Of a stretch of DNA of 64,000 nucleotides, positions 8,095-61,388 are shown piece after piece. The position numbers and the translations under genes were made by a program. The notes beneath the pieces were generated by a model. The model had not been told where the DNA came from. It was given only the letters and a program-made list of their open reading frames with translations, and did not search any database. The DNA comes from Alistipes finegoldii. GTDB taxonomy: Bacteria > Bacillota > Clostridia > Christensenellales > UBA1242. The number at the start of each line of letters is the position of its first letter. Position 1 is the first letter of the stretch. Location of the stretch: the NCBI GenBank assembly GCA_963614045.1, contig CAVEBU010000002.1, positions 676-64,675 of the forward strand. Direction: 5' to 3'.

Positions 8095-8138
8095 TTGTCC
8101 ACCAAGATAGGAAAAGATGCTGTAGTGGTGTCTTTTTT
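8081..8138. repeat. 58-bp direct repeat, copy 1 (last 14 nt of tRNA-Lys + 44 nt downstream)
   Basis: Identical to 8406-8463 at every position compared by eye. Confidence 0.9.
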
Positions 8139-16183: not shown

Positions 16184-16201
16184 CGAAAAAGTGAGGTTTT
16201 T

Positions 16202-38295: not shown

Positions 38296-38371
38296 TGGTG
38301 ACCCGTCCGCGACTCGAACGCGGGACAACTTGATTAAAAGTCAAGTGCTCTACCTACTGAGCTAACGGGCC
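38296..38371 (-). tRNA. tRNA-Lys (anticodon TTT)
   Basis: The reverse complement GGCCCGTTAGCTCAGTAGGTAGAGCACTTGACTTTTAATCAAGT...GACGGGTCACCA folds as a cloverleaf. Confidence 0.9.
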
Positions 38372-38374
38372 ATA

Positions 38375-38449
38375 TGGCAGGGGTGGCAGGATTTGAACCT
38401 ACGGGTGCTAGAGTCAAAGTCTAGTGCCTTACCGCTTGGCTACACCCCT
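38375..38449 (-). tRNA. tRNA-Gln (anticodon TTG)
   Basis: Reverse complement AGGGGTGTAGCCAAGCGGTAAGGCACTAGACTTTGACTCTAG...CACCCCTGCCA. Confidence 0.85.
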
Positions 38450-38494
38450 ATAATACGGGTCTTATACAAGCTGGTGCTTGATGCCCAAAAGATG

Positions 38495-38569
38495 TGGCAG
38501 GGGCAGAAGGATTTGAACCCACGAATGCTTGAGTCAGAGTCAAGTGCCTTACCGCTTGGCGATGCCCCT
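38495..38569 (-). tRNA. tRNA-Gln (anticodon CTG)
   Basis: Reverse complement AGGGGCATCGCCAAGCGGTAAGGCACTTGACTCTGACTCAAG...GCCCCTGCCA. Confidence 0.85.
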
Positions 38570-38643
38570 ACGATGTAGTTTACTTTTGGTAAACTAGATA
38601 CTCAAGGAACTTGTTCTCATAAAAGACAGCTTAAATCTGTCAC

Positions 38644-38720
38644 TGGGGTGAATAGTGGGGTTCGAACCCACGACCTCCAGAGCCACAATCTGGCGCTCTC
38701 CCAGCTGCGCTATATCCACC
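38644..38720 (-). tRNA. tRNA-His (anticodon GTG) with encoded G-1
   Basis: Reverse complement GGTGGATATAGCGCAGCTGGGAGAGCGCCAGATTGTGGCTCTGG...TATTCACCCCA, with an extra 5' G opposite the discriminator C. Confidence 0.85.
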
Positions 38721-38797
38721 ATAATTGAGTGATACAAGTTAAGAAGTCCCCAAAAAGCGAACTGCATTTAGAAAACCAGAGAGTTATTCGTCTGGAA

Positions 38798-38874
38798 TGG
38801 TGCGCCCAGAGAGACTCGAACCCCCAACCTTCACCTTAGAAGGGTGTTGCTCTATCCTGTTGAGCTATGGGCGC
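38798..38874 (-). tRNA. tRNA-Arg (anticodon TCT)
   Basis: Reverse complement GCGCCCATAGCTCAACAGGATAGAGCAACACCCTTCTAAGGTGA...TGGGCGCACCA. Confidence 0.85.
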
Positions 38875-42879: not shown

Positions 42880-43902
42880 TTACTTATTTGTAAGTAGTTT
42901 TTCAGCTTGTTTAATACTCGCCAAAAAGTCCTTTTCAACCTGAGTCAATTCGTCTATACTCTTTTGTTTATATTTCTCATATTCCTTAAGAGCTTTTGCT
43001 CGTGCTTCAATTTGACTGATTTTTCCTGGATTTTCGAGGGTATTTCGGTGATTTATCGAGATAAATTCGTCCAATTCCTTAATCCAGTCCCGCATATACA
43101 TAGGGCGTTCTTCTATCGCTTGGATTTCGGCGATGTCAAAATAAGCGGACACAAGACGATTCAAGACGGCAAGTTCTTTCTCATTTAGGTAATTTTTTGC
43201 GACTAAAACCTCGCTTTTGGTAGGCCTTGCACCTTTGAAACAGGTCAGCCCCATAAAAGGAAGTTCCGCATTTGCTCGTGCTTCAATCAATTCGCTAGCA
43301 GTTTTGCCATGCGTTGCGTAGTGGAACTTGTTTTGCATAGCCTTGAAAAAATTTTGAGCGGTCTCGCTTTTGCCGTCGTAGTCAATGCTTGTGGCGAAAA
43401 GATCCAAAACTTGACGATACATAACTTTTTCGGATGAGCGAATGTCACGAATTCTTTCTAGCAATTCTTTGAAATAATTGCCACCGCCCGCTTGTTTGAG
43501 AAGTTCATCGTTCATTGCAAACCCCTTAACGAGATACTCTTTCAGCACCGTATTCGCCCAAATTCTAAACTGCGTACCACGAAGCGATTTAACACGATAA
43601 CCGACCGAAATAATCACATCAAGGTTGTAGAATTTCTTATTGCGGGAAACTCTCCTATTGCCTTCTTGTTGAACTTGTAAGAAATCCTTACAAGTTGAAC
43701 TTTCCTCTAGTTCGCCCTCTGCATATACGTTACCAATGTGCATGGTGATATTTTGCGGAGAAGTTTCAAAAAGCTCGGACATTTGTGCCTGCGTGAGCCA
43801 AACTGTATCGTTGTCGAATTTGACATCGATTTTAGTTTTGCCGTCCACTGTTGTGTACATAATAAATGAAGTGTTTTTTTCTACGATTTCGTCTTTTGCC
43901 AT
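42880..43902 (-). CDS. RhuM family protein
   Basis: ...IDVKFDNDTVWLTQAQMSELF..., FYNLDVIISVGYRVKS.RGTQFRIWA..VLKEY matches the conserved RhuM core as I recall it. Confidence 0.75.
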   Translation of the reverse strand: MAKDEIVEKNTSFIMYTTVDGKTKIDVKFDNDTVWLTQAQMSELFETSPQNITMHIGNVYAEGELEESSTCKDFLQVQQEGNRRVSRNKKFYNLDVIISVGYRVKSLRGTQFRIWANTVLKEYLVKGFAMNDELLKQAGGGNYFKELLERIRDIRSSEKVMYRQVLDLFATSIDYDGKSETAQNFFKAMQNKFHYATHGKTASELIEARANAELPFMGLTCFKGARPTKSEVLVAKNYLNEKELAVLNRLVSAYFDIAEIQAIEERPMYMRDWIKELDEFISINHRNTLENPGKISQIEARAKALKEYEKYKQKSIDELTQVEKDFLASIKQAEKLLTNK

Positions 43903-44111: not shown

Positions 44112-44834
44112 CTACTTCTTGCTTACGTAGGTTTCAAGCACTTTTTTTGCCAAATACTTGTGACCTTCTTCAGACAAGTGAATACCGTCGTCGCAGTAGA
44201 GTTGTTTCCAATTCTTATTTTTTTGAATCAAACTTCGCAAGTCGAGGAGTTTTACATTTTCGCTTTTTGCGATTTCAATTATGCGTTCGTTAAACATAAT
44301 TTGTGCGCTCAGCAGGTTATTTACATCGTTGTCAAGATAAAACATAATGTTGTGTGCGCTCCCGAGTTTCGACACAACAGTGTCAAAGTATAATTTCGGC
44401 ACGAACGGGAGCAGGGTACACATATAAACCTCAAAGCCGTTTTCACGCAAAAAGTGTATAGCTTCACGATAGTATTTCTCAAAATTGTCAAGGTTCGTCT
44501 TTGAAGAGTGCGGAGTAGTCGGCTCTTTGCTGACTTTTGACCAATCATAGTCCGAATCGTTTCCGCCCAGATTGATTACTACAAGATTGCGCAAAGTGTC
44601 GCTCTTGTATTGCAAAACTTTCTGCACGAAACCCTTCTTGTACGCCTTTTCCAAAGTTTGACCAAAAAAGGAAATGTTGTGCGTCTGACAACCAACACTT
44701 TCGCTTATAATGTTGACAGTGCTATTGGGTGCGACTACATACTTGTCTTGAATGTCACGAACGACCCCTTTGGCGTTTGAGTCGCCCAAAATTACCAAAT
44801 TGGTTTGCTTATTCAAGGTTATTTTTTCCTCCAT
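44112..44834 (-). CDS. SGNH/GDSL hydrolase
   Basis: Start MEEKITL... at 44834. Block I LVILGDSNAKG and block V DDGIHLSEEGH are present. Confidence 0.8.
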   Translation of the reverse strand: MEEKITLNKQTNLVILGDSNAKGVVRDIQDKYVVAPNSTVNIISESVGCQTHNISFFGQTLEKAYKKGFVQKVLQYKSDTLRNLVVINLGGNDSDYDWSKVSKEPTTPHSSKTNLDNFEKYYREAIHFLRENGFEVYMCTLLPFVPKLYFDTVVSKLGSAHNIMFYLDNDVNNLLSAQIMFNERIIEIAKSENVKLLDLRSLIQKNKNWKQLYCDDGIHLSEEGHKYLAKKVLETYVSKK

Positions 44835-45660
44835 CAAACAAAATACCAATGCAATTTGGCCCGCAGTGGCAACAAATTGTGCCGTTTGCAAAGGTGTCGT
44901 AAACGTGCTTGAACCCACGTTTTGCTAAACCGCTCTTAAACATCTCCACAATTTCAGGCATATCGGACGAGTGAGTAATAAAAACATAATCAAGATTCGG
45001 GTTAGGGTAGTCCTGCAAAAGTGCGCTGATGTACTTGTCCGCAGCGGACTTCATATTGCCCATAAATTTGCGTTTCACTGTCAATTTTCCGTCTTTCATC
45101 TGAATTTGTGGCTTAATTTTGAGAATATTCGCACCCAAAAGCGCCAAAGCACTGCATCTGCCACCTTTATATAAATAGTTAAGATTTTCAAGGATGAACC
45201 CCGTCTGAATCTGCGGAACTTTCTTGTTAAGCAGTTCCACAATTTCGTTTAATTCCTTGCCCTCATCAACAAGTTGCCGTGCGTAAATCGCCAAAAGCGC
45301 AATCCCTGTTGAAAGCTGTAGGGAGTCGATTATATAAACGTTTTCAAATTCTTCCGCCGCCAATCTTGCGTTAGAGCAGGCACTACTGATTCCGCTACTT
45401 AATGAAATGTGAATTATTGCATCATAATTTTCTTTAACTTTGCCAAAAAATTCCGTATAGTCTGTCATATTAATTGCCGCAGTTTTTGGCAACTGTTTTT
45501 TCTCTGCAACGTAGTCATAAATCTTTTGCGAAACGCCCTCATAGTCCGCAATATAATCGTCGCCCAAAACTACATAAAAAGGTATAGTTTGAATGCCGTA
45601 CTCATCTAGCAAATTCTGTGGCAAATCAACAGTACTTTCCGCCGTAATTGCTATTTTCAT
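44809..45660 (-). CDS. DegV family fatty-acid-binding protein
   Basis: MKIAITAESTVDLP..., ISLSSGISSACSNA; ATG 45660 lies after GAGGT. Confidence 0.9.
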   Translation of the reverse strand: MKIAITAESTVDLPQNLLDEYGIQTIPFYVVLGDDYIADYEGVSQKIYDYVAEKKQLPKTAAINMTDYTEFFGKVKENYDAIIHISLSSGISSACSNARLAAEEFENVYIIDSLQLSTGIALLAIYARQLVDEGKELNEIVELLNKKVPQIQTGFILENLNYLYKGGRCSALALLGANILKIKPQIQMKDGKLTVKRKFMGNMKSAADKYISALLQDYPNPNLDYVFITHSSDMPEIVEMFKSGLAKRGFKHVYDTFANGTICCHCGPNCIGILFDGGKNNLE

Positions 45661-45923
45661 AATTAAATTTACCTCGCTTTTTTGTATATATACAATTTTA
45701 TTTATTTTTAATAGATTTTGCACCCTAATAAAGAAAAAATAACTCTCTTGCGCTTAGATACAACTCTCTTGAAACAAACAACAACTCTCCTGGCAAGAGA
45801 ATTGCCCATTTTTTACTAAAAAATTGTTGATTTTTTGATGATTTTATGCTATATTTAGTGTGAAGTTTGGCCAAAAAGAATTTTTTAACATTTTTTATTA
45901 ATTAAATTAAGGAGAGAATTTTT

Positions 45924-46514
45924 GTGACTGAGGACGAAATTAAACAGAATTTTTCACATAATTTATTGCGATTGCGCAAGGCGAAAAATCTCACTCAAAA
46001 CAAACTTGCTGAAGCGCTTAATTACTCGGATAAAGCGGTGTCAAAATGGGAGGTTGGAGCGGTACTTCCTGACGTGGAAACTATGGTGAATATTGCTGAT
46101 TTTTTTGATGTAAAAGTTAACGATTTAATTTATACAAAAAAGCGGAATATTGACCGTAAATTTAAACTAAAATATTTTATTATAAGTATGCTAAGCATTG
46201 TCGGTGTTTGGCTTGCTGCGGTTGTTGCTTATTTTGTGTGCTATTCTAGTGGGGTGACGGACAGAATTTGGCTAATTTTTATTGGGGCAGTGCCTGTAAG
46301 TTTTGTGCTAGCGATAATTTTTAGTGCGTTGTGGTTTAATCGTTTTGTGCTTTTTGTGGCAATTACGGGCTTCGTTTGGTCGGCTATTGGAACGATTTAC
46401 GTGCTATTAAATTCCACGCATTATTGGTTCATTTTTATAGTTGGTGTGGTTGCGGAATTGCTGGTAATTTTGGGTTGTTTTTTAAACAAACTGACTTCCA
46501 AAAAGACGCTGTAA
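45924..46514 (+). CDS. XRE-family HTH protein fused to four TM helices
   Basis: GTG start after AGGAGAG. The HTH is LRLRKAKNLTQNKLAEALNYSDKAVSKWE, and the C-terminal half is hydrophobic. Confidence 0.75.
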   Translation: MTEDEIKQNFSHNLLRLRKAKNLTQNKLAEALNYSDKAVSKWEVGAVLPDVETMVNIADFFDVKVNDLIYTKKRNIDRKFKLKYFIISMLSIVGVWLAAVVAYFVCYSSGVTDRIWLIFIGAVPVSFVLAIIFSALWFNRFVLFVAITGFVWSAIGTIYVLLNSTHYWFIFIVGVVAELLVILGCFLNKLTSKKTL

Positions 46515-46523
46515 TTAGTAAAC

Positions 46524-46570
46524 AAAAAAGGCTCTTTGGTGACATAAAAGTCACAAAAAGAGTCTTTTTT
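46524..46570. terminator. bidirectional hairpin between convergent genes
   Basis: AGGCTCTTTGGTGAC-ATAAAA-GTCACAAAAAGAGTCT (imperfect), flanked by A and T runs. Confidence 0.5.
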
Positions 46571-46626
46571 CATTAAAAAACGCATAAAAAATTGATTTTT
46601 TATGATTTTTTGCGTATTTTTTATAA

Positions 46627-48159
46627 TTAATGCTGTTGCGCTTGTTGATTTTGTTGCGGTGCAGGTGAGGTGCTGTAGTCGATGTTGCCTCGTATGTAAT
46701 CACGATGATATTCATCGTACTTTGACGCCGTTTCGGTGTTCATAAAAATGTAATCGGGCGATAGGTGATGTTCCTCTAAGTCAGCACCAAAAATTTGTGA
46801 GAAATTCTCAGCGTTGAGTTTTTCTTGTAGCAACTTTTCGCCACCCAAAGTGTTAAAAATCTCTCTGTGGAAATTGAAATTAAGGTCAAGCTGGTCGCAA
46901 TATTTTGCACCCTCGATGGTGCTAATTTTCTTTATGTTTTTCAAATCGTCATGCGAGTTCTCTCGTTTTGTATATGTTGGAAGAACGATATTTTGCCTTA
47001 AGGGTTCGCCCGATTGAATTGACTTGTAAAGCGCATTACCCAAAGCGTCTATGTCTTTTGCCATTTGACTTTCAGGGTTCGTTTTTGCTTTCAAAAACTG
47101 CTCCCAAAGTTCGTCATAATATGCTTTAGATTGCAAATCAGCGTTGGTTTTGGCATTTGCATATTTTGTCTTCATTTCATGAATTTTATCACACGTTTTT
47201 TGCCAAGCGGTGTATTTTGAGAAATTTTCCGCATTGTAACCCTTTTTGCCGACCGAGTAGATTGCGTTTTTGTAGTCTAGTTCGGACATAATATCAGAGT
47301 ACAATTTGTGAAAACGAGGTGTTATCGCTTTGCAAAATTCGGAGTTAAATGATGAGCGTACATATTTAGGCTCGTCGGCAATTCCGCAATACGACGTAAA
47401 CGGAGCGTAAAACGGCATTTTGCAGTCGGCAGGCTCAAGATATTCAGGGTGATGCTCTTGTAGTTGATTCAAGAAATGCACGACTTCAGGCAACTGCTCT
47501 TCGTTTGTGTACAACACTAAAGTGTCACTGCGCACTTTATCGGTGTGAAATTTGCAAAAAAATCTCGTTTCTGGCGACATTTGCATATATTCCGCCATTT
47601 CTCGAATTATATTCAAGCTGTTGGCAGGCGAAACATTAAAGTAAAGCCGTTTAGTAATTTCTCTACTATCGACTTCGCTATTCGTTTTGTTTGGCCAGCC
47701 GTTCGGACAAAAATGGATAAAATCGTGTGATGCATCTTTTTTTAAATCGCCTTCTTCATAAGGATAAATCGAGCAATTTTGCGTGTGAGTGCCAAGAAGA
47801 AATGGAAGATTTTGGTAACGAACAAAAGCCAACTTAAAACATAATTCTGGTGTTACGGTTTCGGGTGTCTCGAATTCGATTTCTGGGCTGTATTTGGCGA
47901 CTAGTTGGGGGTACATTGTGGTGTACAAGTCCTTTGCGAACAGTGACAAGTCTTCGTTCGTTAGTGATTTGCAATTTGTGGAATCCTTTCGCAGTAGTTT
48001 GTAAATAGACGGTTTCAGCTTAAAAGATCGAGTATCAACTATATCGAGCATTTTCCCGTTTCGCACAATGTCTTGCAAAAAATTTACGGCGTTGGCTTTT
48101 GCCTCTCGTGAAACTTGCGGATTTTTGATTAAATATTCAAAAAAATAGTTAGATTTCAT
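46627..48159 (-). CDS. large cytoplasmic protein of unknown family, paralog A
   Basis: 510 aa, colinear with 48214-49974; no signal peptide. Confidence 0.6.
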   Translation of the reverse strand: MKSNYFFEYLIKNPQVSREAKANAVNFLQDIVRNGKMLDIVDTRSFKLKPSIYKLLRKDSTNCKSLTNEDLSLFAKDLYTTMYPQLVAKYSPEIEFETPETVTPELCFKLAFVRYQNLPFLLGTHTQNCSIYPYEEGDLKKDASHDFIHFCPNGWPNKTNSEVDSREITKRLYFNVSPANSLNIIREMAEYMQMSPETRFFCKFHTDKVRSDTLVLYTNEEQLPEVVHFLNQLQEHHPEYLEPADCKMPFYAPFTSYCGIADEPKYVRSSFNSEFCKAITPRFHKLYSDIMSELDYKNAIYSVGKKGYNAENFSKYTAWQKTCDKIHEMKTKYANAKTNADLQSKAYYDELWEQFLKAKTNPESQMAKDIDALGNALYKSIQSGEPLRQNIVLPTYTKRENSHDDLKNIKKISTIEGAKYCDQLDLNFNFHREIFNTLGGEKLLQEKLNAENFSQIFGADLEEHHLSPDYIFMNTETASKYDEYHRDYIRGNIDYSTSPAPQQNQQAQQH

Positions 48160-48213
48160 TTTTTTACCCTTTGCTTATATTTTTATCATTTAGTGCTTGA
48201 CGGCTCAGGGAGT

Positions 48214-49974
48214 TTACTGACGCTCTTGTGGTTCGCCGGTTTGAGACTCTGCTTTAAACATATCTCTGTAATTGTATTTTTGGTTAGAATTAGTTGAGTT
48301 AGAATTTGCTGGGTTGGGATTTCTTGGGTTGGGATTTCTTGGGTTGGGATTTGTCGGATTAGAATTTGCTGGGTCGGAATTTATTGGAAGTGGTCTTATG
48401 GTATCGCTATCAGGCAAACCATCAAAAGGAGATGATTGGTTTATAACAAAGTTATCAGTTGTTTGAGGTTTTCTAATACGGTCGGCTTGACGCTCGCGTT
48501 GATATGCGTCAAAATCCTCAGCTGTTTCAGTAGTAATAAAAATATGGTCAGGGGAAATGTGGTGTTCCTTTAATTTAGCACCAAAATTTTGTGAGAAATT
48601 CGCAGTGTTGAGTTTCTCTTGTAGCAATTTTTCGCCACCCAAAGTGTTAAAAATCTCTCTGTGGAAATTGAAACCAAGGTCAAGTTGGTCGCAATACTTT
48701 ACGCCATCTTTGGTGTTAATTTTCTTTGCATTTTTCAAATCGTAAAACGGGTGCTTTTGTTTTGTATATATTGGAAGAGTGATATCTTGTCTCAAAGGTT
48801 CGCCTGTTTGAATTGACTTGTAAAGCGCATTACCCAAAGCGTCTATGTCTTTTGCCATTTGACTTTCAGGGTTCGTTTTTGCTTTCAAAAACTGCTCCCA
48901 AAGTTCGTCATAATATGCTTTAGATTGCAAATCAGCGTTGGTTTTGGCATTTGCATATTTTGTCTTCATTTCATGAATTTTATCACACGTTTTTTGCCAA
49001 GCGGTGTATTTTGAGAAATTTTCCGCATTGTAACCCTTGTTGCCGACTGAGTAGATTGCGCTTTTGCAATTAAGCTTTTGCATAATTTGAGAATACAAAT
49101 CGTTAATCGGTGCGGATAACGTTTCAGAAACTTCGTCCTCAAAGCTTATTCCTCTTAAGCGGTTTTGGTCAGAAATTCCGCAAGCTTGTCCGAACTGAGC
49201 GCAAAAAGGCAGGTTACAATCGGCTGGCTCAAGATATTCGGGGTGGGTAGTTTGCAATTCGTTCAAAAATTCCTCAACTTCGCTTAATTGTCTGTCGTCC
49301 GTCCGGAATACAAACGAATTACTACTTTCAGGGTCGGTATTAAAATAGCACACAAAACGTTTATGAGCGGTTGCTACTTCTCGAGCAACGTTAAGACAAT
49401 TTTGGGGTGAAATATTGAGATAAACATATTTCGAAGTTGCTTGAGGTTGTACTGAGCCAGAAAGGTTGAAATCTTTATCATAAGGGTTAAAACGAATTAA
49501 TGCGTGTTCTGCTGGCGCTAAAGGATTAAGTTCCTTAAAAGGCTTGAAGTACTTGTCTAAAAGGAATTCACCCATCCAACTATCGTAGTTATAACAGAAT
49601 TCGGGCTGTGCTGAAGGGTCTTCCAAAACTAATGGCTCTAGCTTCCAACCGTCCGCATTAAACGATAAATTAAAGCATTCCTCTGGCGTAATTGTATCAG
49701 GCGACTTTGTGTGTCTGCCACTTCTTTCTTCTAACATTTTAGGATACAAAATTGTATAAATATCCTTTGAAAACAACGCCAAATCCCTATTGGTTATAGG
49801 GGCGTTTTTGGTGGCGTCCTTATTAAATAGATTACGTGCGCCCTGTCCTTTGCTCGAATCGAGAAGTTTGCCGTTTCGTACAGCGTCTTGCAAATAGCGG
49901 ACTGTCTGCTCCTTTACTTGCCTGGATAGTCCTGGGTTCTTGATTAAGTATTCAAAAAAATAATTGTATTCCAT
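48214..49974 (-). CDS. large cytoplasmic protein of unknown family, paralog B, with N/P-rich repeat tail
   Basis: 586 aa. The N-terminus MEYNYFFEYLIKNPGLSRQVK... parallels MKSNYFFEYLIKNPQVSREAK... in paralog A. Confidence 0.6.
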   Translation of the reverse strand: MEYNYFFEYLIKNPGLSRQVKEQTVRYLQDAVRNGKLLDSSKGQGARNLFNKDATKNAPITNRDLALFSKDIYTILYPKMLEERSGRHTKSPDTITPEECFNLSFNADGWKLEPLVLEDPSAQPEFCYNYDSWMGEFLLDKYFKPFKELNPLAPAEHALIRFNPYDKDFNLSGSVQPQATSKYVYLNISPQNCLNVAREVATAHKRFVCYFNTDPESSNSFVFRTDDRQLSEVEEFLNELQTTHPEYLEPADCNLPFCAQFGQACGISDQNRLRGISFEDEVSETLSAPINDLYSQIMQKLNCKSAIYSVGNKGYNAENFSKYTAWQKTCDKIHEMKTKYANAKTNADLQSKAYYDELWEQFLKAKTNPESQMAKDIDALGNALYKSIQTGEPLRQDITLPIYTKQKHPFYDLKNAKKINTKDGVKYCDQLDLGFNFHREIFNTLGGEKLLQEKLNTANFSQNFGAKLKEHHISPDHIFITTETAEDFDAYQRERQADRIRKPQTTDNFVINQSSPFDGLPDSDTIRPLPINSDPANSNPTNPNPRNPNPRNPNPANSNSTNSNQKYNYRDMFKAESQTGEPQERQ

Positions 49975-50003
49975 AAATTATACCTCGTTTTATAGTTTAA
50001 CTA

Positions 50004-50032
50004 ATTATACCAAAATTAATTACAATAGTCAA
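50004..50032 (-). promoter_or_regulatory. promoter of the paralog pair
   Basis: On the minus strand: TTGACT (50027-50032), 17 nt, TATAAT (50004-50009), with a TGG extended -10. Confidence 0.6.
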
Positions 50033-50197
50033 CACTTCTTTGCAACTCTTTTTAATTTAGTGCATAATTGTGGGGGTAAAAAAAGGAGGGGGGTAAAATT
50101 TTATGCAAAAAAGTCTTGGGCGAACCGACTTAAAGCCGAGCGAAATTTTGACAAAATAACTAAATTGTTCAATTTGAAAAAAATTGACAAAAAAGTA

Positions 50198-50225
50198 TTG
50201 CATTGTTCAATTTTTGTGATATAAT
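50198..50225 (+). promoter_or_regulatory. promoter of the MMPL gene (about 180-nt leader)
   Basis: TTGCAT (50198-50203), 16 nt, TATAAT (50220-50225), with a TGTGA extended -10. Confidence 0.5.
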
Positions 50226-50408
50226 TAATCCCGTTAGTTTGAGGCGAATTTCACTTTTTGGTGAATAAAGATATATTATTGTTTTTATATGGACTTAAAC
50301 TCCCCTGAAAAATATTTTTCAGTATTTTAAGACACTTTTGTATCAAAAACATTCGCAAAAACTTTTTTATTTTAATATAATACTTATTATTAAAAGGAGA
50401 TTAGGAAA

Positions 50409-53360
50409 ATGAATTTTCCAAACAAGATTGCAGATTTTGTAGTCAAAGCGAGATGGTACTTTTTCGGGTTCTTTATGCTACTAATTATTGGTAGTTTGAT
50501 TCTTATTCCAATGGTTGGTACGAACTACGATATGACAAAGTACTTGCCGAGCGATTCTGACACAAAAATTGCGCTAGAAGTAATGACGGACGAGTTCGGT
50601 AGTAGTGGAACGGCGAGTATTGTAATTACTAACGCAACACCCGAGCAAGTTGCGGAAGTTGCTGGATTAGCGTCACAAATTAAAGGCGTAAAAAATGCGA
50701 TTTTTTCCAATACGAAAGACTACTATAATTCCGAAACCAAAGCGGGATTGATTCAAATTTTCTTTGAACACGGTAACTACGAGGTTGAAACTGAGCAAGC
50801 GCTTGCTGATTTGCGGGAACTGTGTGAAAGCAAAAATGCGGACGCTTCGTTCTGTGGTGATTCGGTAGACGCAGTGGCTTCCAAGAACGCAATTACCAAC
50901 GAAATGTGGATAATTTTGCTTGTTGCAGTTGCGATAATGTTGGGCATTTTGTTCTTGACCTCACGCAGTTGGATTGAACCGCTGATTTACTTGATTGTAA
51001 TTGGTACGTCTATCATTATTAATATGGGAACGAACTTAATTATGGGCGAAATTTCCTATATTACGAAGTCCATTAGCACGATTATGCTTATGGCAATTAT
51101 TATGGACTACTGTATTGTTTTGTGCAGTAGATATAGGGAAGAAAGTGAAAAAGGTGGCACGCCGACCGACATTATGACGAGGGCGCTTGCGGGGTCGTTT
51201 AATGCGATTTTGGCTTGTTCGCTAACCGTTCTTGTGGGACTTGTGGCGCTGTGCTTTATGAACTTTAAAATCGGGCTTGATTTGGGTGTTGTATTGGCAA
51301 AAGGTGTAGCAATCAGTATTTTTGCGGTGCTGTTCTTTATGCCAAGCGTAATTCTTATGTTCCAACACGCAATGCACTCGTGGCAACACAAGAGCTTCTT
51401 GCCTCGTCTCAACAAACTCGGCACATTTGCCCACAAAACAAGATGGGTTATGCCTGTAATTATGCTGGGCTTAATCGTTAGCGCAATCGTTTTGCAGTCC
51501 AACATAACCTTTACTTACGTGGTTGACAACCACCTTGACGGCAGTCAGTTGGAAAAAGAGGAACAAGTTATTGAAGCAAACTTCGGCAAGCAAAACACAC
51601 TTGTAATTATGGTGCCAAAAGGCGATATTGCGAGCGAAAGTAGGCTTTTGACCGAACTTATGGAAATGAAAGTTGGCGATGACGGAACTGTTACCATTAA
51701 CAAGGCGAGCGGTTTTGCGAATACCGAACTTGCAACTGTTATGAACGCCAGCGCTATTAAAAACAAATTCTATTTGTCCGACGACGCAGTGAATAGTATT
51801 TTTAAGAAATTCGACAAAAACCCTGAAAGCGACACTTTGTACTTGTATCAAGTTATTGAAACTTTGCAAGCGGACAATGATTTGATTAAAAATTCATTTG
51901 CAGAAAAACAAACTACTTTTGACACAAGTTATAAATTCTTGGCGGGCTTCAAGATTTCGCCAAGCAAAGAAGCAAGCGAATTTAACATCTACTCGCAAGA
52001 AAATTATACAACTATGTATGCTAACCTAAAGGGCGATTCAGCACCAGCAACTGATGAACAAGTTTTCGCTGTAATTTATGCTCAAATTTTGGGTAAAGAA
52101 GTAACAGCAGTAACGGACAAAGATGTTTTGCCTGCTTATGCTGTGATTGCGGGAATGCAAACTGCAGCGACTAGCAGTTTGATTGACTTAAACAATTATC
52201 CAAATCTATCTGAGACAGTTTTGAGCCCAACTTATTCTTCGTTTGTTTATACGCAAATGACAAAAGCGCAAGTTGTTCAACAAGGCTTGACGCAGGAAAC
52301 CGTTGACGCAATTTTTAAAGTATATAATATCAAAGACGACGGCACGATTCTATCTTGTCAGCTTATTCAGGCACTTTGCAATCGTGACGCAGAGACTGGC
52401 AAGACAATTATGGATCAATATTGCGATGCGGAAATTGCGACCGTTGCCAGTGCTTATGCAAGCGATATGACCGCACAAGAAATGTACTACAGCGACGATT
52501 ACGCAAGATTGCTATTTAACATTAATGCAAGCGTTGACGAGCAAATTGCGATTGACACAGTCAACAAATTGCGTGAAATTCTTAACAAAGAATATGTAGA
52601 GGCAGGGGTTTACGAGAAATATTACATTGTAAACTCAACACAAAACCTTATTGACACAATGAACGTCTTTAGTGGCGACCGCACACAAACCGACTTAATT
52701 ACGATTATTGGCGTGTTCTTGCTCGTGCTACTTTTGATGCGTAGCTTGAGTATTCCTGTGCTTCTTGTGTTCCTTATTCAAGGTGCAATTTGGATAAACT
52801 TGGCAGTCGGCACGTTCTTCGGCGAATCAATCTTCTTCGTGTGCTACTTGCTCGCTATGGTTATCCAAATGGGTGCGACAATCGACTATGCGATTTTGAT
52901 GACGGACAGATATGTGTTCTTCCGTAAAACTCAAGGCAGACAACAAGCGATTAAAACTGCACTGAATTCCGCTTTCCCAACGGTGATTACTTCAGGCTCG
53001 ATTTTGATTGTTGCTGCGTACTCAATTCACTTCATTTCAACGTTGCCACTCTTGAAATCAATCGGTGGACTGATTGGTCGTGGTGCGTTAATCAGTGTAA
53101 TTGCGGTAATGTTTGTATTGCCGTCCGTATTGCTATTGTTTGATAAAATCATATGCAAAACGACACTCAAGGCGGACTTCCTCGATGAGAAGAAAAATCT
53201 CATTATCGTCGAACCTGAAACCGTAAACGGCGCTCCTGTGAACGCAAACACGACCGCTTGCGAAACGACTGCCGAATCAGTTGCAGGGGAGAAAAAGGCA
53301 ACAAATACACAACCAAAAACTGCCAAAAAATCTCACAAAAAATCTAAGACTAGCAAGTAA
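50409..53360 (+). CDS. MMPL/RND-superfamily membrane transporter
   Basis: 983 aa with two 5-6 helix bundles separated by large extracytoplasmic domains, the typical MMPL layout; Lys-rich C-terminal tail. Confidence 0.8.
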   Translation: MNFPNKIADFVVKARWYFFGFFMLLIIGSLILIPMVGTNYDMTKYLPSDSDTKIALEVMTDEFGSSGTASIVITNATPEQVAEVAGLASQIKGVKNAIFSNTKDYYNSETKAGLIQIFFEHGNYEVETEQALADLRELCESKNADASFCGDSVDAVASKNAITNEMWIILLVAVAIMLGILFLTSRSWIEPLIYLIVIGTSIIINMGTNLIMGEISYITKSISTIMLMAIIMDYCIVLCSRYREESEKGGTPTDIMTRALAGSFNAILACSLTVLVGLVALCFMNFKIGLDLGVVLAKGVAISIFAVLFFMPSVILMFQHAMHSWQHKSFLPRLNKLGTFAHKTRWVMPVIMLGLIVSAIVLQSNITFTYVVDNHLDGSQLEKEEQVIEANFGKQNTLVIMVPKGDIASESRLLTELMEMKVGDDGTVTINKASGFANTELATVMNASAIKNKFYLSDDAVNSIFKKFDKNPESDTLYLYQVIETLQADNDLIKNSFAEKQTTFDTSYKFLAGFKISPSKEASEFNIYSQENYTTMYANLKGDSAPATDEQVFAVIYAQILGKEVTAVTDKDVLPAYAVIAGMQTAATSSLIDLNNYPNLSETVLSPTYSSFVYTQMTKAQVVQQGLTQETVDAIFKVYNIKDDGTILSCQLIQALCNRDAETGKTIMDQYCDAEIATVASAYASDMTAQEMYYSDDYARLLFNINASVDEQIAIDTVNKLREILNKEYVEAGVYEKYYIVNSTQNLIDTMNVFSGDRTQTDLITIIGVFLLVLLLMRSLSIPVLLVFLIQGAIWINLAVGTFFGESIFFVCYLLAMVIQMGATIDYAILMTDRYVFFRKTQGRQQAIKTALNSAFPTVITSGSILIVAAYSIHFISTLPLLKSIGGLIGRGALISVIAVMFVLPSVLLLFDKIICKTTLKADFLDEKKNLIIVEPETVNGAPVNANTTACETTAESVAGEKKATNTQPKTAKKSHKKSKTSK

Positions 53361-55384: not shown

Positions 55385-55600
55385 ATGGCTATTTCTTATA
55401 ATAAACTTTGGAAACAATTGATAGATAAAAATATGACAAAAACAGATTTGAGGTTAAAGGCAGATATTGGGACAGCAACACTTGCTAAGCTTGGGAAAAA
55501 TGAACAAGTGAGTATGGATGTTCTTTTGCGCATTTGCAATGTTCTTAACTGTGATATATCTGAAATAATGGAATTAGCAAAGGAGTCTAAAAATGTGTAA
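55385..55600 (+). CDS. small XRE-family HTH protein (possible R-M controller)
   Basis: ATG 55385 lies after GGAGAAGG. MTKTDLRLKADIGTATLAKLGKNEQVSMDVLLRICNVLNCDISEIM is an HTH_26-like pattern, and the stop overlaps the methylase start. Confidence 0.75.
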   Translation: MAISYNKLWKQLIDKNMTKTDLRLKADIGTATLAKLGKNEQVSMDVLLRICNVLNCDISEIMELAKESKNV

Positions 55601-56498
55601 AGGAGTTGCAAAGCCTTTTTTGAAATGGGCTGGCGGTAAAGGACAACTTATGAATACATTTGATGAAATGTTCTCAAATGAACTTATAGAAGACAAAATA
55701 AAAACATACATCGAACCTTTCGTTGGTGGTGGTGCAGTCCTTTTCCATGTTTTACAAAATTACCACATTGAAAAAGCCTACATAAACGACATAAATAAAG
55801 AACTTATAAATTGTTATCGTTGCATAAAAGCGGATGTAAATGAAGTTATAAAGCAACTTGAAGTTCTTGAAAAAGAATATTTATCTTGTGATGATAGGAC
55901 AAATTATTTTTATAACGTTCGGGACAGATATAACTCAATTCATTTAAATGGACATTACGATTTTGAAAAGTGCGCTGATTTTATATTTTTAAACCACACT
56001 TGTTTTAATGGACTTTATAGAGTTAACAAAAGTGGTAAATTTAATGTGCCACATGGCAAATATAAAAATCCTTTGATTTGTGATAAAGAAAATTTGTTAC
56101 TTTGTTCAAAATTGTTGCAAAAAGTTGAGATTAGTTTTGGTAGTTATGAACAAGTTTTAAGCAATGCAGATAAAAACACTTTCGTTTATTTTGACCCACC
56201 TTATCGCCCACTTATTGAGAATAATTCATTTGTAAGTTATGATAAGTCAGGGTTTGATGATAAAGACCAAATTGAACTTGCTGAAAATTTTAAAGATTTA
56301 GATAAAAAAGATTGTTTACTTATGCTTTCAAATTCCGACCCTAAAAACACAAATGAAAATGATAACTTTTTTGATGACTTATATAATGGCTTTGAAATTG
56401 AAAGAGTTTATGCAAAACGAATGATTAACTGTCAGGCAAGTAAGCGTGGAGATATAACAGAAATTGTTGTAATGAATTACAAAAGGAGAAAAAAATGA
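55593..56498 (+). CDS. Dam/DpnM-like (D12 class) N6-adenine DNA methyltransferase
   Basis: KPFLKWAGGKGQL, EPFVGGGAV and FVYFDPPY motifs. Confidence 0.85.
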   Translation: MCKGVAKPFLKWAGGKGQLMNTFDEMFSNELIEDKIKTYIEPFVGGGAVLFHVLQNYHIEKAYINDINKELINCYRCIKADVNEVIKQLEVLEKEYLSCDDRTNYFYNVRDRYNSIHLNGHYDFEKCADFIFLNHTCFNGLYRVNKSGKFNVPHGKYKNPLICDKENLLLCSKLLQKVEISFGSYEQVLSNADKNTFVYFDPPYRPLIENNSFVSYDKSGFDDKDQIELAENFKDLDKKDCLLMLSNSDPKNTNENDNFFDDLYNGFEIERVYAKRMINCQASKRGDITEIVVMNYKRRKK

Positions 56499-57149
56499 AT
56501 ATTTTTACAAACATAACAGATTCTTTGATTTATGAAAAAGAATTTAATAAAAACAAAAATGCTATAGAACTGGTTAGATTTAATTCTAATTATGATAAAG
56601 TAATTGCCCATCACGATAAAGAAAATCTATGTTTTAGATTTTTCAAGGAATTGAATTTAAAAAGAAATGACAAGTTGATTGATAACCACGATAATATTTA
56701 TTTTGTTGATGAGGTGATTGTTAATCAACCATACTTAATAAAAAAAAGACGGATTAATATCTGGAGAGAAAGAATTTCAAACAACAATTGTAAAGTATAC
56801 AAAACAGTTAATAGAATTACCAGACAGCATAAAACAATGTGTTAAAATTGAAACAAATATTAACATTGATGCAAAAAATTCCCAATTCTCAGGTGGATTA
56901 GCTAATTATAACATAAATCAAACAGCTTCATATAATCAAATTTTTGACTTTATGAAAGTGTTATGTAACAATACTTTCAACGTAAAAGAATTGCAACCAT
57001 TTTTACATGGGATTGAAGGCAGTATGAAAGATAAAAAGCCTATTGAAGAAAAATGGTACAAAAAGTTTTTTAAATTTATGGGCACTCAATTGTTAGAAAT
57101 TGCAAAGCAATTTATTGTAGCATATGCTACATCGCTAGCAACCAAATAG
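56495..57149 (+). pseudogene. unknown gene split by a +1/-2 frame change at an A8 run (ORFs 56495-56845 and 56742-57149)
   Basis: ATGA overlap with the upstream methylase. The second frame is open from 56742, directly after the A8 run at 56740-56747, and runs to 57149. Removing one A fuses the two into about 218 aa. Confidence 0.6.
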
Positions 57150-57158
57150 GAGAAAAAT

Positions 57159-58016
57159 ATGAAAAGAAATTTTAAAGAATGGTTTAATACTTTCACTGAT
57201 AGCATTGCGACTTACGAATATTATACAGATTTCAATACAGTCTATAAAAACATTAACAAAATTAAAGTTGAATTAAATATAATGAATTCACTTGTTGGTT
57301 CTAAAAATATTGAAAAAGATTTTGACAACCTCTTCAACAGTTATCCAGAAATTAGAAAATGTTTACCACTTTTAATTGCTGTGAGAGAAAAAGAAATTAA
57401 AGTTGTTGATGATGGTGAAAAGTTAAAATACAACTTTACAAATATTGACGATATTGAACTTTTGAAAAGATTTATGAGAAAAACTGGTTTGTTTGACTTA
57501 ATTTCAAGTCATTTAGTAAACAATCTTGTAGATTATGCTACTGGTGTTGAAGTTGGTCTTGGCTCTAATGGAAGAAAAAATCGTGGAGGGCATCTTATGG
57601 AAGATGTTTTGCAAGGTTTTATTGAGAAAGAAGGTTTTGTTTTAAATCAAACTTATTTTAAAGAAATGTACTTGAAAGATATTGAGAACAAATGGAACAT
57701 TGATTTATCTTCTTTATCCAATCTTGGCAAAGTTGCAAAAAGATTTGATTATGTTGTAAAAACTGATAATTGTATTTATGCTTTTGAAACAAACTTTTAC
57801 TCTAGCTCAGGTTCAAAACTTAATGAAACTGCGAGAAGTTACAAAATGATTGCAGAAGAAAGCAAACATATTAAAGGATTTGCTTTTGTTTGGGTTACTG
57901 ATGGTTTAGGTTGGGTTGATGCTAGAAACAACCTTGAAGAAACTTTTGATGTAATGGACAACCTTTATAACATTAAAGATTTGTCTAATGGCAAGTTGAA
58001 GGAAATTTTAAAATAG
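57159..58016 (+). CDS. DpnII/MboI-family type II restriction endonuclease (GATC expected)
   Basis: YYTDFNTVYKNINKIKVELNIMNSLVGSKNIEKDF, TGVEVGLGSNGRKNRGG and NFYSSSGSKLNETARSYKMIAEE closely track the DpnII sequence as I recall it. Confidence 0.85.
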   Translation: MKRNFKEWFNTFTDSIATYEYYTDFNTVYKNINKIKVELNIMNSLVGSKNIEKDFDNLFNSYPEIRKCLPLLIAVREKEIKVVDDGEKLKYNFTNIDDIELLKRFMRKTGLFDLISSHLVNNLVDYATGVEVGLGSNGRKNRGGHLMEDVLQGFIEKEGFVLNQTYFKEMYLKDIENKWNIDLSSLSNLGKVAKRFDYVVKTDNCIYAFETNFYSSSGSKLNETARSYKMIAEESKHIKGFAFVWVTDGLGWVDARNNLEETFDVMDNLYNIKDLSNGKLKEILK

Positions 58017-58736
58017 ATGGAAGAAAAATTTGAATTAGAAACTAACACTGTTTGGTCGTTTCCAAATCGTGGCAAATGGGCAACCCATGATGCAAAATAT
58101 CGCGGAAACTTTTCCCCTTATGTTGCTAAAAATATCATTTTGAGATATTCGAAGCCAAATGATTTGGTGCTTGACCAATTTGTTGGTGGTGGTACTACTC
58201 TTATTGAATGTAAATTAAATAATCGTAATGCAATTGGTATTGACATAAACCCAAAGGCTGTTGAGATTACAAAGAGCAAACTTGATTTCGATTGTGAATT
58301 TAACAATGAAATAAAAGTTGAACTTGGTAATGCTTGTGATTTGAAAAATATTCAAAATGAAAGTGTCGATTTAATTTGTACCCATCCACCTTATGCAGAT
58401 ATTATTAAATATAGCGAAGATATTGATGAGGATTTATCTCATCTAAAATATAAAGATTTTCTTGTGGCAATTGAAAAAGTTGCTAGCGAGTGTTATAGGA
58501 TTTTAAAGAAAGATAAATTTTGTGCTATTGTTATGGGTGATACTCGCAAAAACGGAATGGTTCAACCACTCGGTTTTGAAGTTATGCAAAGATTTATAAA
58601 CGCAGGCTTTAAACAAAAAGAAATTATCATAAAAGAACAACACAATTGTAAAGCAACAGGTTTTTGGAAAACAAATAGTGAAAAATACAACTTTTTGCTA
58701 TTGGCACATGAGTATGTGTTTGTGTTTAAGAAATAG
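58017..58736 (+). CDS. SAM-dependent DNA methyltransferase, FxGxG before (H)PPY
   Basis: LVLDQFVGGGTTLIEC (motif I) lies about 75 aa before LICTHPPYADI (motif IV). The start abuts the REase stop. Confidence 0.7.
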   Translation: MEEKFELETNTVWSFPNRGKWATHDAKYRGNFSPYVAKNIILRYSKPNDLVLDQFVGGGTTLIECKLNNRNAIGIDINPKAVEITKSKLDFDCEFNNEIKVELGNACDLKNIQNESVDLICTHPPYADIIKYSEDIDEDLSHLKYKDFLVAIEKVASECYRILKKDKFCAIVMGDTRKNGMVQPLGFEVMQRFINAGFKQKEIIIKEQHNCKATGFWKTNSEKYNFLLLAHEYVFVFKK

Positions 58737-58770
58737 TATTTATTTTAATATGTTAAATGAAGGATTGAAG

Positions 58771-59883
58771 ATGAAAAAAGAAAAATTAAAACCTTTACTA
58801 AAGTATCCTGGAGGAAAAACTTCAGAATTGGGTGTTATTAATGAAAATTTGCCCTCTAATATTAATAATTATATTGAGCCTTTTGTTGGCGGTGGTGCAG
58901 TCTATTTCGATTTAAATAATAAGAATAATTTTATCAATGATAAATCTGAAGAACTAATTTTATTATATAAATATATAAAAGAGAATAATCCTACTTTTTA
59001 TAATGAACTTGACATTATAATATCTAATTGGAATAAACTCAAAGAATTAGCAAATAATGATCGAATAACAAATTTATACATTAAATATAGAAATGATGAG
59101 AAATTTGATATGCATCAAGAATTGCAAGATATCATAAACATTGGTATAGAGAAAGTACCTATGTTTACATTGAGAAAAAGTATTAAATTCGAAAGTTTCC
59201 TAGTAGATTGTCTATATCAAAAATTCAGTTTAATAAAAAGAAACGAAATTAAGAAAAAAGAATTATTAGAGCATAGTCCATTGATAGATAATATAGAGGC
59301 TGGAATAAAAGCGGCATACTATACATATTTAAGGGATGTATATAATAAACCAAGTGAATATAATAAATTAACAAGACCTAGAAAAGTCGCTATATATTTA
59401 TTTATAAGGGAGTATTGCTACTCTTCAATGTTTAGATTTAATAAAAATGGTGGATTTAATGTGCCATACGGAGGAGTTTCGTATAATAAAAAAACTTTAG
59501 AAACAAAAATCACATATTATAAGACAAAAGAAGTTAAAAACATTTTAAACCATACTCAATTATATAATGAAGATTTTTATAGTTTTTTAAATAAAATTAA
59601 GATAGATAAGAATGACTTTATGTTTTTAGATCCTCCTTACGATACAACCTTTAGTGAATATGATAGAAATTCATTTGGGATGGAAGATCAAAAAAGATTG
59701 GCAAATTATTTAATCAATGAATGTCCATGTAGATTTATGTTAATTATAAAGAAAACTGATTTTATAGAGAGCTTATATATTAATCAGGGGCTAAAAATAT
59801 TAGAACAAGATAAAACTTATTTTGTTAGTTTTAAAAATAGAAACAAAAAAGATGTAAAACATTTAATTATAATGAATTATTAG
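58771..59883 (+). CDS. second D12-class N6-adenine DNA methyltransferase with enlarged middle region
   Basis: ATG 58771. Motifs LLKYPGGKTSE, EPFVGGGAV, FNVPYGG and FMFLDPPYD are present; about 370 aa against about 300 for the first Dam-like gene. Confidence 0.8.
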   Translation: MKKEKLKPLLKYPGGKTSELGVINENLPSNINNYIEPFVGGGAVYFDLNNKNNFINDKSEELILLYKYIKENNPTFYNELDIIISNWNKLKELANNDRITNLYIKYRNDEKFDMHQELQDIINIGIEKVPMFTLRKSIKFESFLVDCLYQKFSLIKRNEIKKKELLEHSPLIDNIEAGIKAAYYTYLRDVYNKPSEYNKLTRPRKVAIYLFIREYCYSSMFRFNKNGGFNVPYGGVSYNKKTLETKITYYKTKEVKNILNHTQLYNEDFYSFLNKIKIDKNDFMFLDPPYDTTFSEYDRNSFGMEDQKRLANYLINECPCRFMLIIKKTDFIESLYINQGLKILEQDKTYFVSFKNRNKKDVKHLIIMNY

Positions 59884-59892
59884 GAGATTAAT

Positions 59893-61383: not shown

Positions 61384-61388
61384 CTATT

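Follow-up and report, generated by a model that had tools for sequence, protein, structure and literature searches.

A predicted two-gene operon in a 64-kb stretch of DNA (hereafter the window) from a Christensenella-like Clostridium encodes two paralogs, par2 (586 aa) and par1 (510 aa), that appear to be lineage-specific tandem copies. They belong to an uncommon group of long-form proteins within the HopA1/LanY/OspF superfamily of phospho-Ser/Thr beta-elimination lyases. The pair probably consists of a stand-alone phospholyase and a pseudoenzyme partner: lyase activity is predicted for par1 and a non-catalytic role for par2, with a C-terminal docking function common to both and a protein as the substrate.

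Both open reading frames were found on the minus strand, exactly where the preliminary description of this DNA had placed them (Table 1), and annotation of the neighbouring genes agreed that they are flanked by an XRE-family regulator with transmembrane helices (XRE-TM) on one side and an MMPL transporter on the other; DegV, GDSL, RhuM and GlyRS genes are also among the neighbours. The one strong promoter previously proposed for the pair was recovered as a consensus prediction, matching the sigma-70 consensus at 11 of 12 positions (the top site within 45800-50500) and located approximately 30 nt 5' of the par2 start codon, with a GAGG Shine-Dalgarno sequence before the par2 ATG. No terminator-like or otherwise significant structure was detected in the spacer between par2 and par1 (folding versus shuffles, z -0.03). 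The region 3' of par1 contains a hairpin (-25 kcal/mol over 116 nt, z -5.5, with none of 200 shuffles folding equally well) that is likely to be a bidirectional intrinsic terminator common to par1 and the convergent XRE-TM gene; every close relative keeps this regulator gene in synteny. From these sequence features, par2 and par1 would be transcribed as a two-gene operon from a single promoter close to consensus, the only terminator being the one that follows par1. The only Rfam matches across the window are tRNAs, and the 434-nt leader/intergenic region has none. Neither protein has a signal peptide or transmembrane segment by hydropathy (maximum Kyte-Doolittle scores of 0.87 and 0.42 in a 19-residue window, with 2.84 for the neighbouring XRE-TM protein as a control), in keeping with the cytoplasmic location suggested before.

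Table 1. Features of the par2-par1 locus (positions are those of the window).
Feature	Position	Strand	Remarks
XRE-family HTH regulator with C-terminal TM helices	45924..46514	+	convergent to par1
Hairpin flanked by A- and U-runs, 3' of par1	46524..46570	-	folding versus shuffles
par1, 510 aa	46627..48159	-	operon gene 2; long-form HopA1/LanY-like, predicted pSer/pThr beta-elimination lyase
C-terminal domain of par1, aa 271-510	46630..47349	-	helical bundle and small beta-sheet (AF2)
Gene-conversion tract, par1 side, 231 nt	47014..47244	-	identical to par2 48808-49038
Lyase core of par1, aa 140-280	47320..47742	-	family conservation and Pfam HopA1 match
Intergenic spacer, 54 nt	48160..48213	-	AAGGG Shine-Dalgarno for par1
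par2, 586 aa	48214..49974	-	operon gene 1; HopA1/LanY-like paralog, predicted pseudoenzyme
Asn/Pro-rich low-complexity tail of par2	48289..48387	-	15-nt tandem repeat, 6.6 copies
Gene-conversion tract, par2 side, 231 nt	48808..49038	-	identical to par1 47014-47244
Degenerate lyase core of par2, approximately aa 152-287	49114..49521	-	21 of 35 conserved core positions changed
Predicted sigma-70 promoter	50004..50032	-	TTGACT, 17-nt spacer with TG extension, TATAAT

The two proteins are colinear paralogs, as had been noticed (BLASTP 55% identity over 506 aligned residues, E = 0), and the motifs quoted earlier (M..NYFFEYLIKNP, Y.N.SP.N.LN and HPEYLEPADC) are all present; what had been missed is that the identity is very uneven along their length. 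The N-terminal and core regions are only 41-48% identical between par1 and par2 and are saturated at synonymous sites (dN/dS approximately 0.17 in the core). Synonymous divergence falls to a dS of 0.09 over codons 301-400 and is saturated elsewhere. Inside the C-terminal domain, the copies share a perfectly identical tract within a zone of approximately 540 nt that is 78-100% identical, and this uninterrupted run of 231 nt indicates gene conversion. Gene conversion is possible without selection for a shared function. Judged by sequence, the pair is a lineage-specific tandem duplication. The Asn/Pro-rich tail of par2 has no equivalent in par1. A 517-aa protein (P0002) that joins the N-terminus of par2 to the C-terminus of par1 was considered as a fusion by unequal crossing-over and rejected, because the sequence comes from a scaffold that contains a 10-N gap and the assembly had switched copies by way of the identical tract.

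Neither protein scores above the curated threshold of any Pfam or NCBIfam family, consistent with the earlier remark that no domain could be named with confidence, and NCBIfam gave no match for par1, par2 or ten relatives. A faint likeness to HopA1 that had been pointed out proved to be remote homology, on profile as well as fold evidence. The match of par1 to PF17914 (HopA1) scores 17.9 bits (E 0.003; aa 141-279 on HMM positions 4-138 of 170), below the curated gathering threshold of 22.7 bits; par2 has no PF17914 match in Pfam, and weak ones were obtained for four of seven members of the close family. When a profile of the family was used for searching, 96 relatives were retrieved, and in an alignment of 97 members that takes in par1 and par2 (approximately 10% mean column identity), 50 sequences match PF17914 at E <= 1e-3, the best at 4e-13, with several relatives passing the curated cut-off. 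Alignment by hhalign of the close family with four such threshold-passing members of PF17914 gave a probability of 97.8% (E 8.9e-13, 251 columns) and brought their RLYxN and K..R.D....Y motifs into register. Searches of PDB-chain sequences returned nothing relevant for full-length profiles of the close family and of the 97 members; a core-only profile reached HopA1 (4rsx) at an E of only 0.49, and in this weak direct alignment the Arg and Lys of the family align with HopA1 residues. No clear match to a housekeeping family emerged.

Structure prediction agreed. The AlphaFold (AF2) model of par1, the member of the pair that was modelled, has a pLDDT of 90.9 and a pTM of 0.90, and its top two Foldseek matches in the PDB are HopA1 structures (4rsx and 4rsw; E 1.5e-4 and 1.8e-4, prob 1.0, approximately 290 aligned columns, target-normalised TM 0.50-0.51), followed in third place by the lanthipeptide lyase LxmY (9dk1_B; E 1.3e-3) and, weakly, by SpvC at ranks 6-8 (E 0.1-0.3). 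According to the model, par1 has a HopA1-type alpha/beta fold; both proteins comprise an N-terminal helical region, a core of this type and a C-terminal domain of approximately 240 aa. Modelled alone (pLDDT 89.9), the C-terminal domain of par1 has no significant fold match by Foldseek (best E 0.25 in the PDB and 0.57 in BFVD); a kinase-like identity for this domain was rejected on the fold search with the isolated-domain model.

Ten residues of the par1 core (H149, R171, Y173, N175, K203, R210, D212, Y217, P238 and S270) are at least 90% conserved in the family, and the R, K, R, D and Y positions are conserved at 92-96% across the 97 very divergent sequences. In the lanthipeptide lyase CaoY, mutagenesis has established that R187, K219 and R229 are required for phosphate elimination (PMC9486802). 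The counterparts of these residues and of CaoY Y236 are R171, K203, R210 and Y217 of par1, with the same spacing in both proteins for the first Arg and the Lys (32; R171/K203 and CaoY R187/K219) and for the second Arg and the Tyr (7; R210/Y217 and CaoY R229/Y236). Thus par1 appears to keep the full LanY-type catalytic set, along with H149 and D212, the equivalence with CaoY being drawn from spacing and family conservation.

The corresponding positions of par2 are occupied by Y183, Y210, S217, N219 and R224, with His changed to Arg at position 161, so that all six residues of the par1 catalytic set are replaced; par2 is the sole member among the 97 aligned that lacks all of R, K, R, D and Y. 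This loss of the whole set went unmentioned in the preliminary description. The core of par2 is 35-43% identical to that of every other family member, and the core of par1 is 56-59% identical to those of its orthologs. Such a complete loss with a faster-diverging core, in a gene seen in no more than two assemblies, both from a single species, is what would be expected if par2 were a decaying, functionless duplicate and the pair had no joint mechanism, but this we find hardly credible. The 586-codon reading frame is intact despite saturated dS, and when neutral evolution was simulated with 0.1-0.25 substitutions per site, the first 290 codons stayed open in no more than 0.02-1.6% of the runs (the lowest figure at 0.25), so that neutral drift is a very unlikely explanation for an open par2 frame at such divergence. 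Outside the core, par2 retains most of the conserved positions; it is also the promoter-proximal gene, has a good Shine-Dalgarno sequence and is found as a near-identical copy in a second strain. With catalysis lost, the reading frame constrained and the C-terminal domain homogenised, par2 is most likely a pseudoenzyme that shares the partner- or substrate-docking surface of par1.

A single-copy ortholog (P0008) has K-to-R, R-to-N and D-to-E changes at the catalytic positions, and its retention with a compromised site suggests that a non-catalytic function may matter. The persistence of P0008 and par2 with degenerate sites would also fit an unlikely alternative, that these are non-enzymatic, HopA1-like binding proteins in which the "catalytic" residues are kept for binding or for a stable fold, and par1 and par2 represent two binding variants. 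HopA1 has a described binding target and no demonstrated lyase activity (PMC9486802), and the N- and C-terminal regions of the family diverge very fast between species, as is often the case for interaction surfaces. However, conservation of R, K, R, D and Y to the degree observed is typical of a catalytic site and coincides with the proven residues of CaoY, and their total loss in par2 resembles release from catalytic constraint.

[quoted passage not shown] The second protein, par2, would have arisen by duplication of the same gene, losing the catalytic residues while its reading frame was kept intact and constrained, and gene conversion would hold its C-terminal domain nearly identical to that of par1. 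It may act as a heteromeric partner, or as a non-catalytic competitor or regulator. Phosphorylation of the substrate, if needed, would be carried out by a kinase encoded elsewhere in the genome.

The chemistry predicted for par1 is borrowed from the LanY branch (PMC9486802). HopA1 itself is not known to have any enzyme activity; it is the LanY branch that is active, and there the lyase depends on a complex with an APH-type kinase, of which none was detected here. The LanY lyases that take part in class V lanthipeptide and thioamitide biosynthesis (CaoY, LxmY 9DK1, SprH3 and ThoD/TvaD-type proteins) have the same fold and the same Arg/Lys/Arg/Tyr pattern and spacing as par1, but are proteins of approximately 310 aa that form an obligate heterodimer with the adjacent APH-like kinase LanK (PF01636) and act on a leader-containing precursor, whereas par1 and par2 are 150-250 aa longer and have the extra C-terminal domain, and par2 lacks the catalytic residues altogether. 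The role of LanY as the only proven biochemical function among PF17914 homologs (PMC9486802; PMC12141560), like the third place of LxmY among the structural matches, could be taken to mean that par1 is itself a RiPP dehydratase subunit of the class V lanthipeptide type whose kinase and precursor are encoded elsewhere. This is very improbable, given the length of the proteins and the gene neighbourhood. CaoY homologs have a high co-occurrence with APH kinases within 10 genes (PMC9486802), but no kinase domain was detected among the Pfam-scanned neighbours or the larger open reading frames of the window, nor were any kinase fusions among the long relatives. The 434-nt upstream region contains no precursor-like small open reading frames, and no cyclase (LanX-like), decarboxylase, reductase, exporter cluster or other RiPP tailoring genes were identified in the window neighbourhood. 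Eight distinct contexts of related loci (within L001-L015) are likewise devoid of kinase and RiPP genes; the contigs of two short-form relatives (P0035 and P0036) are too short to display neighbours. The association with lanthipeptide, kinase or effector genes that had been raised as a possibility was looked for here and at the loci of relatives, and not found.

The pair was also considered as a conflict system, whether a toxin/effector or a module directed against phages or competitors. Phosphorylated proteins, foreign or the cell's own, would be irreversibly inactivated by the lyase, with the dead paralog as decoy, sensor or antidote; this is compatible with the lyase biochemistry and differs in biological role. 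Several features of the locus point in that direction. Between genomes the gene is 35-48% identical and the four flanking genes are 76-96% identical; it occupies a variable slot in which relatives carry an extra fast-evolving lipoprotein; the duplication is lineage-specific; and mobile and defence genes, RhuM and an R-M/GmrSD island among them, lie nearby in the window. Nevertheless, we consider a conflict system rather improbable, since neither PHROGs nor tblastn against plasmid and phage collections gave a match, and PADLOC (PADLOC-DB 2.0) gave none for par1, par2 and six relatives other than a chance-level hit for P0008 (E 0.007). The proteins have no secretion signal, and no type III secretion, chaperone or other secretion genes were detected within the window, nor any secretion gene near the relatives' loci. 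Distant long-form relatives reside in housekeeping neighbourhoods, and the close clade is monophyletic and syntenic, which indicates that it is vertically inherited and not mobile. Scanning with the close family located only two Christensenella MAG loci among genomes and one more in metagenomes.

HopA1 of Pseudomonas syringae (PF17914; 4RSX and 4RSW), a type III effector that binds EDS1 in plants, is the best structural match and belongs to the same Pfam family as par1 and par2 by transitive and profile-profile evidence. It is a secreted protein of approximately 380 aa with a chaperone-binding N-terminus from a Gram-negative plant pathogen, whereas par1 and par2 come from a gut Firmicute without a secretion context, possess an additional C-terminal domain and are approximately 11-13% identical to it. 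OspF and SpvC (PF03536) belong to the same structural superfamily at a greater distance, and PF03536 and PF17914 have been linked in the literature (10.1101/2024.08.21.608992; PMC10604976). Both groups have the base Lys and the Tyr, but OspF has Lys and His where LanY and the par1 family have the enolate-stabilising Arg; there is no significant sequence match, nor any Pfam match of the pair to PF03536, and OspF-type proteins are either secreted effectors or fused to kinase and cyclase domains. Other enzyme/pseudoenzyme paralog pairs likewise combine an active and a dead copy that are co-expressed and share a non-catalytic domain, an arrangement that the sequences suggest here; no such pair in the HopA1/LanY family is described in the literature searched.

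To our knowledge, phospho-Ser/Thr lyases occur in two settings only: as secreted effectors, which irreversibly disable host MAP kinases, and in lanthipeptide dehydration, where a kinase is, as far as we know, their invariable partner. If gut Clostridia do have a branch that is kinase-less, non-secreted and chromosomally stable, this would point to bacterial cells as a third setting, in which the chemistry is used internally. Possibly, although this is doubtful, the branch is a hitherto undescribed class of stand-alone bacterial "phospho-erasers" that irreversibly convert pSer/pThr to dehydro-amino acids on endogenous, phage or competitor proteins, are targeted by the C-terminal docking domain and are controlled by a co-expressed pseudoenzyme twin competing for, or bridging to, the same target, with their very rapid evolution reflecting an arms race over this target. 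The tandem pair is a natural experiment, in which one copy has the full catalytic set, the other has none of it, and a freshly homogenised C-terminal domain is common to both; it offers a direct handle on what the accessory domain binds and on whether catalysis matters. As no member of the family bears a name in any of the sources, a functional assignment would propagate to approximately 100 representatives of 50%-identity clusters.

The preliminary description placed two co-oriented paralogs in the window, and par1 and par2 lie exactly at the coordinates given there (see the table); their products are 55% identical across 506 aligned residues (BLASTP), which bears out the claimed paralogy. 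A hydrophobic N-terminus and a TM segment are absent from both, in agreement with the reported lack of a signal peptide, and their Kyte-Doolittle scores over 19-residue stretches peak at 0.87 and 0.42, versus 2.84 for the neighbouring XRE-TM protein (an XRE-family HTH regulator with C-terminal TM helices). The proposed single strong promoter was recovered by prediction as a near-consensus site ~30 nt upstream of par2. As the 54-nt spacer between par2 and par1 is unstructured and a strong hairpin (z -5.5) with flanking A- and U-runs lies 3' of par1, the simplest reading of these predictions is a two-gene operon. The flanking XRE-TM and MMPL genes are also present as described: the convergent XRE-TM gene is on the side of DegV, GDSL hydrolase, RhuM and GroEL genes, and the divergent MMPL gene is on the side of GlyRS. 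The Asn/Pro-rich tail of par2 (…NSNPTNPNPRNPNPRNPNPANSNSTNSN…) is encoded by 6.6 copies of a 15-nt tandem repeat, identical in a second strain.

Coordinates of the gene pair and of other features in the window and in related loci
Feature	Sequence	Coordinates	Strand	Description
par2	window	48214-49974	minus	586 aa, promoter-proximal ORF
par1	window	46627-48159	minus	510 aa ORF
Predicted promoter of par2-par1	window	50032-50004	minus	TTGACT, 17 nt with TG, TATAAT
Identical run, par1 copy	window	47014-47244		231 nt
Identical run, par2 copy	window	48808-49038		231 nt
par2 tail repeat	window	48289-48387
DegV/GDSL overlap	window	44809-44918		110 nt
RhuM-family gene	window	42880-43902		low GC (0.34)
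Restriction and defence island	window	55593-62749		low GC (0.27)
Terminase and portal genes	window	14249-18124
Five clustered tRNA genes	window	38299-38874	minus
Another tRNA gene	window	8029-8101
Lipoprotein gene	L005	11969-14305	minus
Lipoprotein gene	L010	11712-13922	minus
Distant long-form relative	L012	7208-9485
Distant long-form relative	L013	7266-9581
Distant long-form relative	L015	2188-9443
Second assembly of the species	L016	1-3657		GCA_963638485.1, CAVHRR010000099.1
Scaffold gap	L016	1599-1608		10 N

Several other features of the window were noted. The RhuM-family gene, between the GDSL hydrolase and GroEL genes, is probably an insertion, since only an 88-aa ORF is found at that place in syntenic relatives. 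The DegV and GDSL genes overlap when their longest ORFs are taken, and the GDSL protein probably starts at a downstream codon, as the products in relatives are 234-245 aa long versus 268 aa here. Besides a Dam-type methyltransferase with a DpnII endonuclease, the restriction and defence island adjoining GlyRS encodes a second D12 methyltransferase, a GmrSD-like nuclease and an ATPase of AAA_15/AbiEii-like type. Genes for a T4-type large terminase and for a P22-like portal protein mark a prophage-like region.

Neither par1 nor par2 passes any curated Pfam or NCBIfam threshold, and no database source names any family member. Close homologs are extremely rare: 5.8 billion proteins contained six clusters, 185,579 species-representative genomes contained two loci, each in a Christensenella MAG, and 241 million metagenome records contained one locus. 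The match of par1 to the Pseudomonas syringae effector family HopA1 (PF17914) is sub-threshold (17.9 bits, cut-off 22.7, E 0.003, aa 141-279). An exhaustive HMM search with a close-family profile yielded 96 relatives at E <= 1e-3, in which profile positions ~150-280 were recurrently matched; PF17914 is found in 50 of the 97 aligned sequences (best E 4e-13), several above the curated cut-off, and hhalign of the close family against four threshold-passing PF17914 members gave 97.8% probability (E 8.9e-13, 251 columns). The confident AlphaFold2 model of par1 (pLDDT 90.9, pTM 0.90) has as best PDB matches two HopA1 crystal structures (E 1.5e-4), followed by LxmY, the lyase subunit of lexapeptide dehydratase (E 1.3e-3), and then the phosphothreonine lyase SpvC. 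In the literature, HopA1, LanY (lyases of class V lanthipeptide pathways), OspF/SpvC and the LanKC/LanL lyase domains are grouped together as structurally related pSer/pThr beta-eliminases of a single family (PMC9486802, PMC10604976, 10.1101/2024.08.21.608992). Thus, the faint HopA1 resemblance noted in the preliminary description reflects real, remote homology, and par1 and par2 are very probably members of the HopA1/LanY superfamily.

The LanY protein CaoY requires R187, K219 and R229 for phosphate elimination, according to mutagenesis, and its Y236 is conserved with the catalytic Tyr of SpvC (PMC9486802). In an alignment of 97 family members including par1 and par2 (mean column identity about 10%), R171, Y173, N175, K203, R210, D212, Y217, P238 and S270 (par1 numbering) are near-invariant, as are additionally Y53, Y79, Y83, F147 and H149 in the long-form subset, which has an extra C-terminal domain; par1 has all of these. 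The spacings R171-K203 (32 residues) and R210-Y217 (7) are the same as R187-K219 and R229-Y236 in CaoY. R171, K203, R210, D212 and Y217 correspond to Y, Y, S, N and R in par2, where H149 is also replaced by R, and par2 alone among the 97 lacks the whole catalytic-position set. Of 35 core positions conserved by 70% or more of the long-form members, 21 are changed in par2 and 8, all conservatively, in par1. The single-copy ortholog P0008 (531 aa, L005-L007) of a related Christensenella-like genome carries K203R, R210N, D212E and Y173F, and its lineage may have retained the gene in the absence of a standard active site.

Residues 271-510 of par1 are confidently predicted as a helical bundle with a small sheet (pLDDT 89.9, modelled alone). 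Fold searches gave best E-values of 0.25 (PDB) and 0.57 (BFVD), neither of them significant, and none of its residues reaches 90% conservation among long-form members. This domain is not kinase-like, and would be an accessory or docking domain.

Because close relatives (other Christensenella-like genomes) carry only one copy, at the corresponding syntenic position, the duplication is lineage-specific. Over the core (aa 140-280), par1 is 56-59% identical to the orthologs and 41% to par2, and par2 is 35-43% identical to the orthologs, which indicates that par2 has changed faster since the duplication. Over aa 296-400, the corresponding identities are 32-37%, 91% and 30-37%. Synonymous substitutions have reached saturation across the N-terminal and core halves, whereas dS is 0.09 in codons 301-400, where 231 consecutive nt are perfectly identical; this indicates recent gene conversion limited to the C-terminal domain. 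A decaying pseudogene was considered for par2 and rejected: its reading frame of 586 codons is uninterrupted, the core has a dN/dS of about 0.17 (only a rough figure, as dS is saturated), and in neutral simulations at 0.25 substitutions per site the first 290 codons stayed open in 0.02% of runs. Another assembly from this species (L016) also contains both genes, nearly unchanged. P0002, a 517-aa database protein with the par2 N-terminus and the par1 C-terminus, is not a real fusion but a scaffolding artefact, as the first piece of the gapped L016 scaffold passes from par2 into par1 through the identical tract.

Within the Christensenella-like clade, identity of the HopA1-like gene is 35-48% in every genome pair, and that of its neighbours is 82-95% (XRE-TM), 76-86% (DegV), 78-89% (GDSL) and 93-96% (GroEL); change is fastest in the N- and C-terminal regions of the HopA1-like gene. 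The clade is monophyletic (family E-values of 1e-125 or lower versus 1e-36 for the next relatives), so the gene has diverged fast by vertical descent and was not replaced from outside. The slot between the HopA1-like gene and XRE-TM is a variable region; in L005 and L010 it holds a fast-evolving predicted lipoprotein (~740-780 aa, lipobox FAGC, collagen-like G-x-y repeats) that shows just 38% identity between these two genomes and has no counterpart in the window.

The suggested co-occurrence with lanthipeptide, kinase or effector genes was not observed: near the pair, the window has no gene for a kinase, a RiPP precursor, a cyclase, secretion or immunity, and none of eight distinct related contexts (Christensenella-like L001, L005, L008, L010; distant L012, L013, L014, L015) has a kinase gene. 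Kinase fusions are likewise absent from the long relatives, and phage, plasmid, PADLOC and PHROGs collections gave no match to the family. In the distant contexts, a single gene lies amid housekeeping genes, beside cvpA, near spoIIGA-sigE-sigG and the dcw cluster, or beside tRNA synthetases. At L012, L013 and L015, long-form relatives lie in spore-forming Clostridia, twice directly downstream of cvpA and close to spoIIGA-sigE-sigG and ftsQAZ/dcw genes; distant long-form relatives may thus have a link to the biology of the envelope or to sporulation.

We propose that par1 would be a stand-alone lyase of HopA1/LanY type acting on pSer/pThr by beta-elimination, with specificity set by its fast-evolving N- and C-terminal regions, and that par2 would be a co-expressed pseudoenzyme, acting as heteromeric partner or competitor; since par2 keeps the N- and C-terminal regions, it probably makes the same partner or substrate contacts. 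The combination of predicted lyase and pseudoenzyme partner is somewhat favoured, and the specific role of par2 is held less firmly. Caution is due because HopA1 itself has no demonstrated activity (PMC9486802), LanY acts only with a bound kinase, of which there is none near par1 and par2, and P0008 has K-to-R, R-to-N and D-to-E changes. The literature searched describes neither stand-alone HopA1-family proteins in Firmicutes or Christensenella nor an active/dead pair in the HopA1 family. The fold and probable chemistry are already known; what is new is the architecture, the genomic setting and the arrangement of the paralogs.
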